A stretch of 64,000 nucleotides of DNA from a virus (taxonomy: Duplodnaviria; Caudoviricetes). The notes under the pieces are model-generated. The model had not been told where the DNA came from. It made no database searches and worked only from the letters and a program-made list of their open reading frames with translations. The number at the start of each line of letters is the position of its first letter. Within the stretch, counting starts at the first letter, position 1. Of the stretch, positions 13,479-20,006 are shown piece after piece. Location: IMG/VR virus record IMGVR_UViG_3300009826_000020, positions 1-64,000 of that record; one strand, written 5' to 3'. The translations under genes and the position numbers were made by a program.

Positions 13479-13814
13479 ATGGCAGACGGTGATGACCAGG
13501 ATGATGGCCAACAGGCCCCGTCGAATTCCCCAACCGGGAGCGCAGCGGCCACCTGGGCGCATCAGACCTCAATGTGGCGAGCTTCAGGGGACCCGAGCTT
13601 GAAGGCACCGGGCGGATTTTCTGGGTCCTCGATGACCGGGCAACCGGCCAAAAAGCCTACGCCCTCAGGCGGATTTTCCGAGAGTTCGATCATGGGTGGG
13701 GGTCATGGATACCCCAATGCTGGGGCACCTATCAGGGAAAATCCTGGGTGGCAGAAGGGGTTGGGGAGCAGGAACGATAGAGCTTGGGTGTTCAGCCAGC
13801 GTTATCGCCATTAG
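13479..13814 (+). CDS. low-complexity protein, antisense to the head operon
   Basis: 111 aa; TACCCT 7 nt upstream of ATG; converges on the terminase stop. Confidence 0.5.
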   Translation: MADGDDQDDGQQAPSNSPTGSAAATWAHQTSMWRASGDPSLKAPGGFSGSSMTGQPAKKPTPSGGFSESSIMGGGHGYPNAGAPIRENPGWQKGLGSRNDRAWVFSQRYRH

Positions 13815-15445
13815 GCCGTTCGGCGGCGGGTCGCCGCCCGTGCCCTCTTCGCAGACGCCACCCACGGGGTCGCCTGGACCTCGACCTCAGGGATCATCAT
13901 CTGCTGGCTCATGATCGTGGCGCACGCCAGGGAGTCGACGTAGTCATCGTGGACACCGGCCTCGTCGGGGGCCGAGACGAGCATGTGCGCCCCTTTGTAG
14001 ACCTTCTCGACGTCGATCATCTGCTGGTGAAAACGCCGCCACACACGGGTTTTCTTCGTTCTGGGGGCGGCGGGCCAGGAGATCAGGCCCCGTTGTAGTA
14101 GCTGTTGGAGGTGCTTCCACCGGGCCGACTGATCGGGCAGGTTCGAGGACAGGGGTTCAACCTGGATGCGAGGAAGCAGCCTTTTTAGCCTATCGGCTGC
14201 CACATCGCCCACTCCCTGGGCATCCACGCCACAGGACACGATGGAATAGTTGGAGAAAAAATCCACGATACGAAAATATTGGTCTTCCCACTCCTCGCCG
14301 TGCATCTCCAACCAGTTGAGGATCCGGCAGTCGTACAGGCCCAATTCATCGGGCCGGTCCCAGTCGACCCAGAGAACCGTTGCCACCGTCGAGTCCATCT
14401 TGCGGGCAAAATCTATGCCAGCGACCAGGGCACTGCGAAAATACGCAGGCACGATGGGCATCGTAGAGTCACCGAGTTCGTCCATTCGACTCTCAGTGAT
14501 GAGCATGCCTCGCTCAAGGAGCCACTCCAGCCGGTAATTGAGCCGGAATTCATCGGAGTCCTCTCCAATTCGCATCGCCTCACCACGGATGTAAGCGGCG
14601 TAATTGCGGTTGTACCGGGCGCAATATCTCCAGTCGAAGCGGAAATGGTTTTTCCTCCCCCCACGTCGTAGCTCCTCACGGCGGTTGTGCATGATCGTCT
14701 TGTAGAACACGCCCTTGACGATGTCGGGCGTACCCGTCATCACGGTGGTCGCCAGGTAGAAGGCCCCCATGGGGGTGATGGACTTGTTGAGCACGTACTC
14801 GTCCACCGACTGGGACTCATCGACAAAAATCACATGGTAGGACTTCGACTCGATTTTTGCCCGAGGGTTGGCCGTCTGCATGGCGCAAAAACTGCCGCAT
14901 TTTTTCAGCCGTACACGCCGGGACCCGGGCTTCACCTGATCATCGATCTCGGGATCTTCGAGGATCTCCAGGGCACGGTCAGAGGTCAGCCGGTCGACCA
15001 CCCGCCCGAAGAGCGTCTCTACCTGCTGCTCCACCGGGGCGAAGCAGCCGATCATCACGCCCTCTCTGAACTTCTGGAGCGGCTCGAACTCCGGGAACAT
15101 CTCGGCCAGGCGGGGCAGGAGCACCATCAGGCTGGCGGCGACGTTGGCGACCACCTCGGTCTTGCCTGACTGCCGGGAGAGTTCGCCGGTAATGGTGGCC
15201 CCGTCGCCGGAGACGACGCTCTCAATGATGCGCCGCCCGAGTGCCTCCTGGTAAGGGAACATCTGAACGCCAGAGAAACTTAAGGTGAACTGCCAGATCT
15301 GGTCGGTGATCCGGTCCACGAACTGCTGGCTGGCGGGGTCCAGTTCAGGGGGGGCGTACTGCTCTAGCTCGTCGGAGACCTCCTCATCGCCTTCTCCCAC
15401 AAGGTCTTCTGCCATGTCGAGGCCGGGTTCGTCCACGAACGTCAT
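13811..15445 (-). CDS. terL: terminase large subunit
   Basis: Walker A SRQSGKTE, Walker B VIFVDESQ, RNase H-like AGIDFARK ... HDDYVDSL. Confidence 0.93.
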   Translation of the reverse strand: MTFVDEPGLDMAEDLVGEGDEEVSDELEQYAPPELDPASQQFVDRITDQIWQFTLSFSGVQMFPYQEALGRRIIESVVSGDGATITGELSRQSGKTEVVANVAASLMVLLPRLAEMFPEFEPLQKFREGVMIGCFAPVEQQVETLFGRVVDRLTSDRALEILEDPEIDDQVKPGSRRVRLKKCGSFCAMQTANPRAKIESKSYHVIFVDESQSVDEYVLNKSITPMGAFYLATTVMTGTPDIVKGVFYKTIMHNRREELRRGGRKNHFRFDWRYCARYNRNYAAYIRGEAMRIGEDSDEFRLNYRLEWLLERGMLITESRMDELGDSTMPIVPAYFRSALVAGIDFARKMDSTVATVLWVDWDRPDELGLYDCRILNWLEMHGEEWEDQYFRIVDFFSNYSIVSCGVDAQGVGDVAADRLKRLLPRIQVEPLSSNLPDQSARWKHLQQLLQRGLISWPAAPRTKKTRVWRRFHQQMIDVEKVYKGAHMLVSAPDEAGVHDDYVDSLACATIMSQQMMIPEVEVQATPWVASAKRARAATRRRTA

Positions 15446-15482
15446 GGCCCTCCAGCCTAGATCCCTGGGTCCTCCGTCCCCT

Positions 15483-15613
15483 GGTTGTCCACAGGCTGTG
15501 GGTAGAGGACCGATGGTCAGTGAGGTTAGGTGAGCCTCAGTGAGGTCAGGTGATGTTTACCTGTGGACAACCTCGTATTCATTGCACCCTTTACGACCAC
15601 CTTCTGTGGACAA
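15483..15613. promoter_or_regulatory. candidate replication origin: DnaA boxes plus 20-bp-spaced direct repeats
   Basis: TTGTCCACA at 15485 (+), 15562 and 15605 (-); TCAGTGAGGT(T/C)AGGTGA at 15517 and 15537; lies in the divergent gap before the initiator gene. Confidence 0.65.
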
Positions 15614-15622
15614 CATTGCCTC

Positions 15623-15628
15623 TTGACA
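15623..15628 (+). promoter_or_regulatory. -35 box (TTGACA) upstream of the replication operon
   Basis: perfect TTGACA; the matching -10 is weak (CATTGT at 17-nt spacing). Confidence 0.35.
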
Positions 15629-15734
15629 CTGAGTTGGTACGGGGGCATTGTCCCCGGTTACCGCTTCATCGGGGAGCGGCTGGACAGACGACTTCGGCCC
15701 CCGGAGGGGCCTTTTAGACCGGAGGTATGGCTGC

Positions 15735-16478
15735 GTGGACAAAGCCCTACTACCTGCTTGCTCTGAATTGGGTGAGACACCTGAGCACCGGCTCCTGTAC
15801 TGGATGAGCACCCACTGCACCACCAGGGGTCTGGTGAGGGGGGACTTCGATGACATGAGGCGGATGCATGAGGTGAGGCATTTGCAGGATGCTGGGTATA
15901 TCCAGCGGATAACCGGAGAGGATGGTTCCAGTTACCGGTGGAAGGTGCTCTCACCCTGCCCTGGGCTAGAAATTTCACCCGTCTCACCAGGACTTTCCCA
16001 GAAAGATTCCCCAGTGGCACATGGGCGAAGCCCGGAGCGGAGTAGTCTAGTCGCCTCAGCGACTGGATTACGGAGCGTAACGAGCGGAGGTGGAGGCCCC
16101 GAAGGGGCCGGAACCTCAGCGACTGCTTCTAAGGTTTTTTGGCACCCCTTTGCCCAAAATCAGAAAAAAATCCGCCCAGAGGTTCGGTTAGCCAAAGAGG
16201 TTTTTTGTGGCCTTGTCCATATGGACAGGCACACCCACGAAGTTGGGGCATTAGTCGGGAACCTTCGGCTCTGGCATGACCAGGACGGCTATGAATGGGA
16301 GTTCATAGAGCGGATGATGAGGGAGTTCTCCAGGCATCCTGAGTGGTATCGGGGCAAGACCACGCCCTGGAAGGTTTTCGTCTCCAAGCGTCCCCGACTA
16401 GCGGAGCTAGTGGTAGCTCGTCAGCAGAAGGATCCCGGTAGCCGTGAGAACGCTGGCATTGTCTGGTGGGCGGTATGA
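15735..16478 (+). CDS. putative replication initiator
   Basis: wHTH-like N-part, low-complexity linker, helical C-part; directly upstream of DnaC-like loader and DnaB; GGAGG SD before GTG 15735. Confidence 0.55.
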   Translation: MDKALLPACSELGETPEHRLLYWMSTHCTTRGLVRGDFDDMRRMHEVRHLQDAGYIQRITGEDGSSYRWKVLSPCPGLEISPVSPGLSQKDSPVAHGRSPERSSLVASATGLRSVTSGGGGPEGAGTSATASKVFWHPFAQNQKKIRPEVRLAKEVFCGLVHMDRHTHEVGALVGNLRLWHDQDGYEWEFIERMMREFSRHPEWYRGKTTPWKVFVSKRPRLAELVVARQQKDPGSRENAGIVWWAV

Positions 16479-16891
16479 GCCGCCCTCGGCCCCGAGCAGG
16501 TTATCCACAGCATGTCCCCCCTCTGTGGATAACCGCCCCCGCCACCGAGGACTTCAAGTCCGACCCCAGGTGCCGGTGCATCGGCAAGCAGCACCTCTAC
16601 TTCGATGACTCCATCGAGGCCCTCGCCGCCTGTCAGGCCCTGTGCGCCTCCTGTCCCTTGTTCCAGCCCTGCACCCGCTGGACCTTGCAGAATTACAAGC
16701 TCCAGCCCTTCGGTATTTTCGCCGGTCTGACCGAGCACGTCCGGGCGAGAATCTTCTATGGGGCAGAGGAGTGGTACGACTGGCGCACCGACTGGCGTCA
16801 GCGTTACGCAAAAAAGCTCATCAAGCGCCGTTACCATGCGGCTGAATTGAGGAGAGGTAATGAAAAGGGTTTTTCTACCGTACAGGGGTAA
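16475..16891 (+). CDS. whiB: WhiB-family transcription factor
   Basis: C...CASC.....C plus GIFAGLT turn. Confidence 0.75.
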   Translation: MSRPRPRAGYPQHVPPLWITAPATEDFKSDPRCRCIGKQHLYFDDSIEALAACQALCASCPLFQPCTRWTLQNYKLQPFGIFAGLTEHVRARIFYGAEEWYDWRTDWRQRYAKKLIKRRYHAAELRRGNEKGFSTVQG

Positions 16892-17456
16892 GGGCCTGGA
16901 TAACTTCGACATCCTTAACCCTATTCTGCAGGATGCTGTGGATAAGGTGAAAACCTATGTTGTGGATTGGGGAGCGGCGGATGGGCTACCAGAAGGGTTC
17001 GGTATCATTTTTGTAGGTCCGAGTGGTGTTGGGAAGACTCGTCTTGCATGCTATGTGCTAGAGGCCATGGCTGCCAAAGGTGCCCAGATTGAGTGTATAG
17101 AGGTCAGTTCCTATGTTGGCTTGCACCAGGATGCATGGAGTCGTCAGCGGGCTGAGCAGTGGGAGGAATGGGCCGAGGTCAAAGAGCACCTTGACTTCAT
17201 CCGAAATCGTGCTCGGTTTCTGCTCCTTGATGACCTGGGTCGGGAACATGAATCCGTCTCTGGGTGGTCAAACGAGCAGATGTTTGATCTTCTGCGCTAC
17301 CGGTGGAACCGAGGAAAGCCTACCATCATCACTACGAATCTTCCCTATCAGTCCCTGACAGATCGTTACACTGAGGGTTTTACGAGTTTTCTCAGTGAAA
17401 TCACGATACCAATTGTCATGGAGGGGGAGGACTACCGACGCAAAAAGGGCAGCTAG
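16860..17456 (+). CDS. DnaC/IstB-like helicase loader ATPase
   Basis: GPSGVGKT, LLLDDLG, TIITTN. Confidence 0.9.
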   Translation: MKRVFLPYRGKGLDNFDILNPILQDAVDKVKTYVVDWGAADGLPEGFGIIFVGPSGVGKTRLACYVLEAMAAKGAQIECIEVSSYVGLHQDAWSRQRAEQWEEWAEVKEHLDFIRNRARFLLLDDLGREHESVSGWSNEQMFDLLRYRWNRGKPTIITTNLPYQSLTDRYTEGFTSFLSEITIPIVMEGEDYRRKKGS

Positions 17457-17476
17457 GTACCGCTGTTGAGCGGCGT

Positions 17477-17881
17477 ATGATTTTCGTCTGGGAGGGGGCG
17501 GTTGCCTCTCTCCCAGGTGGTCATGCGGTCAAAATCCTCGAGGATTTCAAGCGGCGCATGGGTTTATTCGATGCAGCCGTCAGCTATTGGCAGGTTCATC
17601 CGAACGCTCTTTCATGGATGTGGACGATTTTGGCCCGGACAGAATTCCGTATCGATCTCTGTGTCACCAGCCGTCAACCTCAATTCGCCGCCGCAGTGGC
17701 CCGGAAAAGCGAGCGGGAGAACTGGCCTATACGGTATGTCTTCGCTGAATCCGCTGAAGTATTGGGGCGTCGACTCCCCCAGATGCCCGATGTCGAGCGT
17801 GTTATCTACGCTCTCGACTCCCAACGATGGGCCTTTGGTCCGAGAGGTATTCACGTTCCTACGGCTGGACAGGTGGTGTAA
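17477..17881 (+). CDS. hypothetical (HAD-like fold possible)
   Basis: 134-aa ORF in the replication operon. Confidence 0.55.
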   Translation: MIFVWEGAVASLPGGHAVKILEDFKRRMGLFDAAVSYWQVHPNALSWMWTILARTEFRIDLCVTSRQPQFAAAVARKSERENWPIRYVFAESAEVLGRRLPQMPDVERVIYALDSQRWAFGPRGIHVPTAGQVV

Positions 17882-19122
17882 TGGACATTGAGTGGGCGCT
17901 TATCTGCAAGGCTGTTGAGGTTGGTGGTTATCAGCAGTTGGCAATGGCGCACATCACCGAGGCCTATTTTCAGGATCCCGACAATGCCGCCGCCTTCGGG
18001 TGGATGCGGGATCACTGGAATACCTACGAGGTGCCGCCGGGTGAGGAGGCATTCCGTCACGAGTACCCCGAGGACAACCTGATCGAGACGCCTGAACCTC
18101 TGGCTTATTACATCGATGAGTTACGGGCGCAACGGGAATATGCCTTGGTGACTGCCATGCTCGACCAGATAAAGGAGCCACTGAAGAACGGGGATTCGTC
18201 TATTGCCCTGAAGATCATGGCGACCGGGATCGAAAACATCCATACCGAGGTGGTGCATTTACTTGATGACCATGCCAGTGAGTGGAAGAAAAGAATGAGC
18301 CGCTACGAATTATTGACCGAGCACCAGGGTGGGCTACTCGGGCCACCGACCGGATTCCAGACGATGGACATCGCCACGGGTGGATTGCAGGACCAGCAAC
18401 TGATCACGCTCATCGGGCTGCCGAAGGTGGGCAAGAGCATGATCCTGATGTGCATGAACATCGCCGCCAACCAGGCGGGCAAGAGGACCATGTACGCCAG
18501 CTTCGAGATGACCAACGATGAGCAGTTCCTTCGTCACGATGCCCTCAGGGCCGGTGTGAGCCTCTCCAGGCTCTCCAGGGGGCAACTGGTGGACACTGAG
18601 TGGGCGAAGCTCAGGCGGATGTTCCACGCCAGCGAGGACATGGCTGACATGACTCTGGTGCATGACCCCGCCGGGGTGACCACCGTGTCGGCCATCGCCT
18701 CGAAGATTTCAGAGGTGCGCCCGGACATTGTGTTTATCGACGGGTCCTATCTGATGGATACGGAAAACCCGGCTATCACTCCCGGCACCCCCCAAGCCCT
18801 CACTGAAATGACCCGCTCCCTAAAACGGCTGGCCCAGAGGTTCGATATTCCTATCGTGCAGACGACACAGGCCTTGAGTTGGAAAGCCCGTGGTGGTAAA
18901 TTGAGCCTCGACTCCATCGGGTATTCGTCCAGCTTCGCCCAGGACAGCGATGTGATTTTCGGCGTAGAAGAAGTAAAGGAGCGTCCTGATCTGTTGAACC
19001 TGCGAATTGTGGCATCGAGAAACAGCCCCCGCCGGGAAGTGACCCTGGTGGTCGACCTCGACCACGGGTCTGTTTTGGAGACGGAGGATATTACCTACGA
19101 CTCCGATGACGAGGGCATATGA
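17881..19122 (+). CDS. dnaB: DnaB-like replicative helicase
   Basis: GLPKVGKS, SFEM, IVFIDGSYL, SSFAQDSD; start MDIEW at 17881. Confidence 0.92.
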   Translation: MDIEWALICKAVEVGGYQQLAMAHITEAYFQDPDNAAAFGWMRDHWNTYEVPPGEEAFRHEYPEDNLIETPEPLAYYIDELRAQREYALVTAMLDQIKEPLKNGDSSIALKIMATGIENIHTEVVHLLDDHASEWKKRMSRYELLTEHQGGLLGPPTGFQTMDIATGGLQDQQLITLIGLPKVGKSMILMCMNIAANQAGKRTMYASFEMTNDEQFLRHDALRAGVSLSRLSRGQLVDTEWAKLRRMFHASEDMADMTLVHDPAGVTTVSAIASKISEVRPDIVFIDGSYLMDTENPAITPGTPQALTEMTRSLKRLAQRFDIPIVQTTQALSWKARGGKLSLDSIGYSSSFAQDSDVIFGVEEVKERPDLLNLRIVASRNSPRREVTLVVDLDHGSVLETEDITYDSDDEGI

Positions 19123-20006
19123 TCGAGGATCTGCTCGAACATATAGGTGTCGAGGACATTCGGCCCCGGGGTAATGAGATCCAGGCTCGGTGCCCGAAGC
19201 ACAAGGAGCGCACCGGGAGCCGGGAATTCCGTCCGATCCACTGGTCGATAAATCGGATATCTGGTGCTCACCATTGCTTCAGTTGTGACTACAGCGGGAG
19301 TCTGGTTCGGCTGATAACCGATATGACCAAGCTGAAGCCGTTCGATGCCCAGGTGCTGATCCATAAATTCAATGTCGAATTGGGAGAGATCGAGGTCCCT
19401 GATTGGGAGCCTTCCCTCACGAAGTCAGTGACGAAGCAATTGCGCCACGAGTTCATCGACCCTCCGAATGGCCCTATGACCGTCCGACACCTGAACAAAG
19501 AGGCCATTAGGCGATTCCGTATCCGCTGGGATCCGAAGCAGGAGGCTTGGATCCTGCCCATAGTGGGGCCGAGTGGGGAGACGTGGGGCTGGCAGGCGAA
19601 GTCACCCGACCAGGTTCGTAATTACCCGCTGGGCATCAAAAAGAGCCGTACGCTTTTCGGTATCGATGTGCTGAGGAACAGTAATTCCGTTGCCCTGGTG
19701 GAATCTCCCCTCGATGCCTGCTACCTCGACACCCTGGGCATCCCGGCGGTTGCCTCCTTTGGTGCAGCCGTCTCCGACCGGCAGATGCGCCTGTTGATCG
19801 AGCGGGTGGATGAGATTGTGCTGGCGCTCGACAACGACAAGGCCGGTCGTCGGGAGGTCATGCGGATCCTGGGGGAGAAATGGCACCACCGGATCCCCAT
19901 GAGGGTTTTTGATTACGGGAAGGTCAAGGGCAAGGATCCCGGCGAGTTGACTCGTAAGCAGGTTGAGCACGGTATGGCTAACGCCATTTTGGCTGCGTTC
20001 TGGTAG
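19119..20006 (+). CDS. DNA primase (zinc-binding domain plus TOPRIM)
   Basis: CPKH...CFSC; LVESPLDA; LDNDKAG. Confidence 0.9.
   Translation: MIEDLLEHIGVEDIRPRGNEIQARCPKHKERTGSREFRPIHWSINRISGAHHCFSCDYSGSLVRLITDMTKLKPFDAQVLIHKFNVELGEIEVPDWEPSLTKSVTKQLRHEFIDPPNGPMTVRHLNKEAIRRFRIRWDPKQEAWILPIVGPSGETWGWQAKSPDQVRNYPLGIKKSRTLFGIDVLRNSNSVALVESPLDACYLDTLGIPAVASFGAAVSDRQMRLLIERVDEIVLALDNDKAGRREVMRILGEKWHHRIPMRVFDYGKVKGKDPGELTRKQVEHGMANAILAAFW

Follow-up and report, generated by a model that had tools for sequence, protein, structure and literature searches.

How does a large phage with a replication module of its own come to carry what look like sites for the initiator protein of its host? The question is raised by a locus in the virus record IMGVR_UViG_3300009826_000020, an 83-kb IMG/VR contig of an uncultivated virus (completeness estimate 71%), the first 64 kb of which are called the window. 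The locus centers on the gap between terL, the large terminase gene, which is read leftward, and a rightward replication operon headed by a gene for a putative replisome organizer; it contains a cluster of perfect DnaA boxes. An earlier note on this DNA had taken the gap for a phage origin assembled from host DnaA boxes and iteron-like repeats. We conclude from their sequence that, with high probability, the sites are true boxes for host DnaA, of the actinobacterial type, and we give about even odds (probability about 0.5) to the reading that they form a docking or control array for host DnaA around the head of a lambda-like replication module, at its early promoter and origin region. The array is best read as a lineage-specific, dispensable add-on, being neither the core origin of the phage family nor a P1-type iteron origin. 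The origins and host-factor needs of large actinobacterial phages are essentially unmapped.

We defined DnaA boxes by the pattern TT(A/G/T)TNCACA, a consensus drawn from PMC4285127 and from Schaper and Messer as quoted in bioRxiv 10.1101/866236, with TTGTCCACA and TTATCCACA as the high-affinity forms. The gap holds three perfect TTGTCCACA 9-mers exactly where the earlier note had placed them: box a on the plus strand (15483–15495, 9-mer at 15485–15493), and boxes b (15560–15572, 9-mer at 15562–15570) and c (15604–15615, 9-mer at 15605–15613) on the minus strand. Boxes a and b are the left and right arms of an inverted repeat that is perfect, as had been claimed, with arms that are 13 rather than 12 base pairs (bp) long and stand 64 nucleotides (nt) apart. 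Three further perfect boxes, of the TTATCCACA form, had been overlooked. Boxes d (16501–16509, plus strand) and e (16524–16532, minus strand) are the arms of another perfect inverted repeat (16499–16534; arms of 12 bp, spacer of 12 nt) inside the 5′ end of the whiB gene, and box f (16936–16945, 9-mer at 16937–16945, minus strand) falls on codons for Ala-Val-Asp-Lys in the 5′ part of the DnaC-like gene. All six sites match the pattern perfectly, and they cluster beyond chance. TTGTCCACA occurs four times in the window against a computed expectation of 0.49, in agreement with the earlier rough estimate of about 0.5, and at least four copies were found in 0 of 100 shuffles. In the whole 83-kb contig, 6 of the 10 perfect occurrences of TT[AGT]TCCACA fall within 1.46 kb (15485–16945), the sole cluster. 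Moreover, all six carry a TT prefix and a G suffix, while the TT prefix is present in only 2 of the 11 other TCCACAG heptamers of the contig; therefore, the unit is the full (G)GTTRTCCACAG, more than a hexamer core.

The proposal that these 9-mers are DnaA boxes of the Streptomyces type is supported by the literature and by chromosomal origins. TTGTCCACA is the high-affinity DnaA box in Streptomyces and M. tuberculosis, and TTGTCCACA and TTATCCACA are the two high-affinity forms that are canonical in actinobacteria and in E. coli/Bacillus (PMC4285127). When bacterial genomes were scanned for inverted pairs of the extended motif, the matches came mainly from actinobacteria. In Nocardiopsis (L126), a cluster of 11 boxes immediately downstream of a gene with Bac_DnaA and Bac_DnaA_C domains is the chromosomal oriC. 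When the box clusters of L126, L118 and L098 were pooled, with just two boxes per locus forced by the search pattern, G stood at position −1 in 29 of 35 boxes and at position +10 in 25 of 35, and position 3 was a mixture of A, G and T. In both of these flanking positions, with G at −1 as well as at +10, the phage boxes agree with the boxes of the Nocardiopsis oriC.

The box word is also enriched across the phage family. Exact peptide patterns of the organizer gave no match in viral contigs, after which relatives were reached through TerL; this search returned 43 related contigs with TerL identities of 73–90%. In a ranking of all 7-mers in the terL-upstream gaps of 28 non-redundant relatives, TCCACAG came first (26 occurrences versus 1.18 expected, in 17 gaps), and the flanks of these family sites reconstruct TTNTCCACAG. 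The relaxed pattern TT[ATG]TNCACA occurred 23 times in the same gaps, versus 1.14 expected, and three control patterns occurred 0–2 times.

The best functional evidence is positional, and it points to transcriptional control. A conserved early promoter lies at 15623–15651 on the plus strand, with a −35 hexamer TTGACA (15623–15628), a 17-nt spacer and a −10 hexamer CATTGT (15646–15651). It could be aligned in about 18 relatives as TTGACA, a spacer of 17–18 nt and a −10 of the form CAnnGT; it is because of this −10 that a scanner for consensus promoters and terminators, which found nothing, missed it. Box c is located 9 nt upstream of the −35 hexamer. The window, L006, L022, L007, L043 and L040 each have a minus-strand box with 0–2 mismatches that precedes the −35 by 8–9 nt; these six genomes represent at least four lineages, the outgroup pair included.

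Which protein reads the boxes can be approached through their distribution. In the TerL tree, full arrays occur in three separate lineages (the window with L006; L028 with L033; and L022), with box-poor lineages between them. The organizer proteins of these three lineages are 24–38% identical and their recognition helices have no common signature, which argues against the organizer and for a conserved, probably host, reader. The second cluster, formed by boxes d and e at the whiB start, is confined to the window and to L006. In these two genomes, WhiB has an N-terminal extension of about 10 residues that the other relatives lack, and the box pair is embedded in it (16475–16534 in the window).

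Several observations weigh against a DnaA docking array. Canonical boxes number at least two in 5 of the 28 gaps, one in 9 and none in 14. Long relatives carry 1–6 perfect boxes genome-wide, all unclustered, and a complete relative of 117.5 kb has a single one, outside the gap. The lone box of a "T-type" clade, which overlaps the left arm of an A-tract inverted repeat, may be incidental. Boxes d, e and f are in coding sequence, and box f, explicable by its codons, could be a coding coincidence. No DnaA-trio, as checked by eye, and no strongly A+T-rich element adjoins the boxes. Finally, it is conceivable that a conserved phage protein reads TCCACAG. Conservation, which the earlier note had named as a check, thus gives a divided answer: the core word is enriched family-wide, but arrays of at least two boxes are found in just those five gaps. 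The arrays are not conserved across the family, and therefore the boxes cannot be its core origin.

In the reading that we prefer, host DnaA would dock upstream of a sigma-A-type early promoter, on boxes a–c (box c covering about −45 to −53), and also just past the organizer gene, on boxes d–f. Docked DnaA would modulate, most likely stimulate, early transcription, and it may help to open or organize an origin in or beside the organizer gene. Such docking would couple phage replication to the DnaA state of the host, as at lambda pR/ori-lambda. We infer each of these elements, namely DnaA binding, the direction of its effect and its role in replication. If the boxes do bind DnaA, the family offers a natural series of promoter/origin regions with none, one or a full array of boxes, and the series would show what a phage gains from the host initiator, whether in the timing of early transcription, in opening the origin or in shutting off the host. 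A defined conserved promoter with its leader, and a structured in-gene origin candidate, are further yields of the locus.

Lambda is the closest model for this arrangement. There, both the transcriptional activation of the origin and a good level of replication-protein expression depend on DnaA binding (PMC8203912). Both phages have a strong early promoter that leads into an initiator gene or, in the present phage, a putative organizer gene (winged-helix N-domain, linker and C-domain) followed by a helicase-loader gene; both have sites for host DnaA near the promoter, very probable ones in the present phage; and the present phage has a candidate cis element in the linker-coding part of the organizer gene, the part of the O gene where the lambda origin lies. 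The two systems also differ. The phage studied here has numerous perfect boxes, most of which precede the −35, and a second set of them follows the gene; its in-gene element consists of non-identical hairpins whereas lambda has four identical iterons. It also encodes its own DnaB-like helicase and primase, and its host is probably actinobacterial. Homology of the organizer to O is a matter of leads at the level of fold and of embedding.

The organizer gene (15735–16478, plus strand) encodes 247 amino acids. It most likely starts at the GTG at 15735, with GGAGG at 15721–15725. Its product has no match in Pfam or PHROG; the best hit among PDB sequences has an E value of 0.32, which is not significant, and a Foldseek search against the PDB gave nothing significant. 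An AlphaFold model built from a 23-sequence alignment predicts with confidence a winged helix at the N-terminus and a helical C-domain, joined by a disordered linker (residues 84–142). In the viral structure library BFVD, the model matched phage proteins annotated "HTH domain", "replication protein" and "conserved phage C-terminal domain" with E values of 3e-5 to 1e-3. VIA-align matched the N-domain to MarR-like winged helices and the C-domain to a DnaD-like domain at Z 5.7, a score level with generic helical matches. The nearest clusters in the ESM Atlas carry Phg_2220_C, HTH_36 and Phage_rep_O, with a score of 0.93 to Phg_2220_C and Phage_rep_O; RepA_N appeared there as a weak structural row only. 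These matches are leads rather than proofs, and they suggest a replisome organizer of the lambda-O/DnaD type, a role that the position of the gene ahead of the loader and helicase genes would fit. The earlier designation of this gene as the initiator is thus plausible in the sense of a replication initiator or organizer, and for a protein of the Rep_3/RepA type there is no support from Pfam or PHROG, neither of which gave a match.

A different element within the same gene is conserved family-wide, unlike the DnaA-box arrays. Its linker-coding part contains a cluster of G+C-rich hairpins on the plus strand (16023–16109), made up of 16023–16033 (GAA loop), 16046–16067 (9 bp), 16068–16080 and 16095–16109 (GAA loop), with homologues at the same position in L006–L047. 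In the relatives, 25 mini-hairpins occur at the homologous position where 4.2 are expected, a six-fold excess, and 13 of the 25 have GNA triloops; when the homologous 90 nt were folded, about 21 of 23 genomes yielded a long stem-loop. Since MAFFT misaligned the hairpin segments, pairs were counted on loop-anchored segments. In 18 relatives, 190 of 216 cells pair, compared with 132 ± 7 when arms were permuted (maximum 159 in 2000 permutations), and most positions show several pair types, that is, compensatory changes. The inner pairs had been used to select the hairpins; the outer six pairs, which are independent of the selection, form in 13–16 of the 18 genomes. Direct reading shows that the 3′ arm is translated in different frames in the window and in L031, and therefore the constraint is on nucleic acid and not on protein. 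The frequency of T·G pairs implies that the functional form is the sense strand, as RNA or single-stranded DNA. The palindromes are not identical repeats. A mildly A/T-richer stretch with A7 and T6 runs follows the hairpins (16128–16208, plus strand) and is among the ~1% of 40-bp windows of the contig with the lowest duplex stability.

Given the family-wide conservation of the hairpin cluster and the location of the lambda origin in the linker-coding part of O, we regard the cluster as a better candidate for the core origin than the box arrays, with a role at the mRNA level equally open. An extended version of this idea holds that the hairpins, with GNA triloops of the d(GCGAAGC) mini-hairpin type, are the real origin or priming signal of the family, and that a few lineages, this phage among them, have independently recruited perfect host DnaA boxes to one or both of its sides. 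We hold this to be rather unlikely; if true, it would show a phage origin that is just becoming dependent on the host initiator.

Other explanations of the boxes share some of the evidence. They could be operators or origin sites of a phage DNA-binding protein, the organizer or another early protein, that controls the divergent promoters and whose sites resemble DnaA boxes by convergence or chance. Inverted pairs with perfect arms of 12–13 bp are operator-like, the sites lie within a divergent control region, one of them keeps a fixed distance from a −35, and flank conservation extends past the 9-mer. Yet the sites match the DnaA box completely, in both canonical position-3 variants and with oriC-type flanks; the spacing of the arms varies (64, 12 and 9 nt) and sites also occur singly; and in the genomes that share boxes, the organizer N-domains differ greatly and their recognition helices have no common signature. 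We also count against a convergent phage reader, and in favor of host DnaA, that no homologue of the DnaA-type DNA-binding domain (domain IV) is encoded in the 83-kb contig. We therefore hold this explanation to be rather unlikely. That the cluster is a functionless product of chance or of coding is far less credible still. Boxes d, e and f do overlap codons that can generate the motif (Leu-Trp-Ile, Val-Asp-Lys), as does a near-box at 15734 (Met-Asp-Lys), and a similar box inside terL in many relatives is encoded by Val-Asp-Lys/Asn. This would hardly account for three perfect non-coding boxes in 130 bp, where 0.49 are expected per 64 kb, for the family-wide enrichment, or for boxes d and e, which L006 keeps together with their spacing while the sequence of the spacer has diverged. 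The near-box itself, with one mismatch, had been listed as a box over the initiator start. The site is present, but the codons Met-Asp-Lys explain its sequence, the L024 organizer also begins Met-Asp-Lys and carries the identical near-box, and it is probably a coding by-product.

The earlier note had proposed, as one possibility, an origin of the P1-oriR/iteron-plasmid kind, self-sufficient in the gap, with a Rep protein on 17-bp iterons, boxes that recruit DnaA and ParB-like maintenance. Its two 17-bp direct repeats are indeed there (15517–15553, plus strand), with copies at 15517 and 15537 and a period of 20 bp, bracketed by boxes a and b; they comprise about 3.7 degenerate 10-bp units. As in P1 oriR and iteron plasmids, boxes thus stand beside short direct repeats next to the gene for a DNA-binding replication protein, here an initiator-like one that adjoins loader and helicase genes, and relatives have 10–11-bp phased arrays at the equivalent place that vary between genomes as the organizer N-domain varies. 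What distinguishes the gap from such origins is that it has two repeat copies, where we took at least three phased iterons of 17–22 bp to make an array and the known systems have five or more. These copies are not conserved: no further copy at ≤2 mismatches exists in the window and the repeats are absent from L006, the nearest relative. The organizer has no match to the Rep_3/RepA family, and the ParB-like gene that had been claimed was not borne out, as no ParB_N domain (PF02195) and no partition gene was detected in the 83-kb contig. A duplex-stability scan placed no part of the gap among the least stable windows of the contig and showed no A+T-rich unwinding element. With arrays of at least two boxes in so few relatives and a better-conserved cis element inside the organizer gene, an origin of this kind is unlikely. 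Another possibility is that the boxes act through DnaA outside replication and transcription, by titrating it as the phage genome multiplies and stalling the host chromosome, or by tethering the DNA to membrane-bound DnaA for injection or packaging, a role proposed for the T5 injection-stop region. T5-like phages conserve DnaA boxes in inverted repeats (~52-bp spacer) within a non-coding injection-stop (iss) region unrelated to origins, with a function that is unproven (bioRxiv 10.1101/866236). The present array resembles this in having boxes in inverted repeats tens of bp apart, in non-coding DNA of a large virulent-type phage; it adjoins terL, and the related contigs L013 and L014 terminate within the gap. 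T5, on the other hand, has eight boxes in pairs 3 bp apart, in a terminal repeat and away from replication genes. The array described here differs in geometry, sits at the replication operon and is coupled to a promoter, and half of it lies with the replication genes rather than with terL. The contigs have no recorded end repeats, and no terminal repeat is evident here. The long related contigs have different permutations, with no end at the gap, so that there is no sign of a fixed DNA end; for the same reason, we rank a cos or pac end at the gap low. The coupling of box c to the promoter also fits a transcriptional role better, and we consider titration or tethering improbable.

Two candidates for the inverted repeats and one for the direct repeats were set aside. 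Sites of a serine invertase (hix/gix-like), or an invertible promoter, were rejected, as they would have half-sites 2 bp apart, not 12 and 64 bp. Pairing of the 13-bp arms into an RNA stem within the terL leader is disfavored by L006, which keeps the motif but not the geometry of the arms. MtrA-type response-regulator sites (PMC4285127, PMC5650626) do not fit the spacing of the window repeats.

With the oriC of Streptomyces, Mycobacterium and Nocardiopsis, the phage array shares the box sequence, the flanks and the A/G/T mixture at position 3 (PMC4285127, PMC3583192). These origins, however, have 11–25 boxes in 0.7–1.1 kb beside dnaA and an unwinding element, whereas in the phage a gene separates two sets of 3 boxes, and there is no clear unwinding element. 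Two box clusters separated by a replication-protein gene are reminiscent of the bipartite origins of B. subtilis and H. pylori (PMC4285127); in the phage, the second cluster occurs in the window and L006 only, and the gene between the clusters is that of the organizer, not dnaA.

The surrounding genes belong to two divergent operons. terL (13811–15445, minus strand; Pfam Terminase_6C and PHROG 2) heads the leftward operon. Rightward, the organizer gene is followed by whiB and by genes for a DnaC-like loader (16860–17456), a conserved small open reading frame (17477–17881), a DnaB-like helicase (17827–19122), a DnaG-like primase (19119–20006) and an SNF2 helicase; the loader, helicase and primase, all on the plus strand as is the small frame, were assigned with Pfam and PHROG, in line with the earlier statement that the phage encodes its own loader and helicase. 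The order terL, gap, organizer, WhiB, loader, small frame, helicase is maintained in all 43 related contigs. TerL and DnaB match Streptomyces phages of 112–116 kb, and these matches, together with the whiB gene, suggest that the host is an actinobacterium. No prophage copy turned up when 185,579 bacterial genomes were searched with TerL, and a DNA search of a phage collection with positions 15000–17500 found no match. A cultured relative, the Streptomyces phage LuckySocke, has eight boxes that are dispersed and unclustered, and a different gene order.

Downstream of the early promoter, about 18 relatives have in common a 5′ leader (15656–15715, plus strand) that consists of GGTTACC, a variable hairpin, GGCTGGA and a second hairpin (15696–15711) followed by TTTT. 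It has no match in Rfam; mRNA stability, attenuation and antitermination are candidate roles.

The relatives show further elements in and around the gap. Between terL and the promoter, L010, L017, L018, L024, L047 and others have three to four degenerate repeats phased at 10–11 bp, of CTGTAGA and GTCACAG types, some of which resemble the reported M. tuberculosis MtrA motif GTCACAGCG; a response regulator or the organizer might bind these phased arrays. An inverted repeat of an A-tract and a T-tract (GAAAAAACC ... GGTTTTTTC) is found within about 100 nt upstream of terL in L009, L010, L011, L017, L018, L020 and L024, where it brackets a second promoter-like element and its left arm overlaps the single T-type box of this clade. 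The Val-Asp-Lys/Asn-encoded box of many relatives is a perfect DnaA-type 9-mer some 133–148 nt inside terL, and the window lacks it. The window has, at 16214–16227 within the organizer gene, a perfect 14-bp palindrome composed of two overlapping box-like halves with 1–2 mismatches to the DnaA box. On the chromosomes of Streptomyces and other actinobacteria (L050–L127), several inverted pairs of the extended box are conserved, with fixed spacings of about 32 and about 50 nt overall in many Streptomyces genomes.

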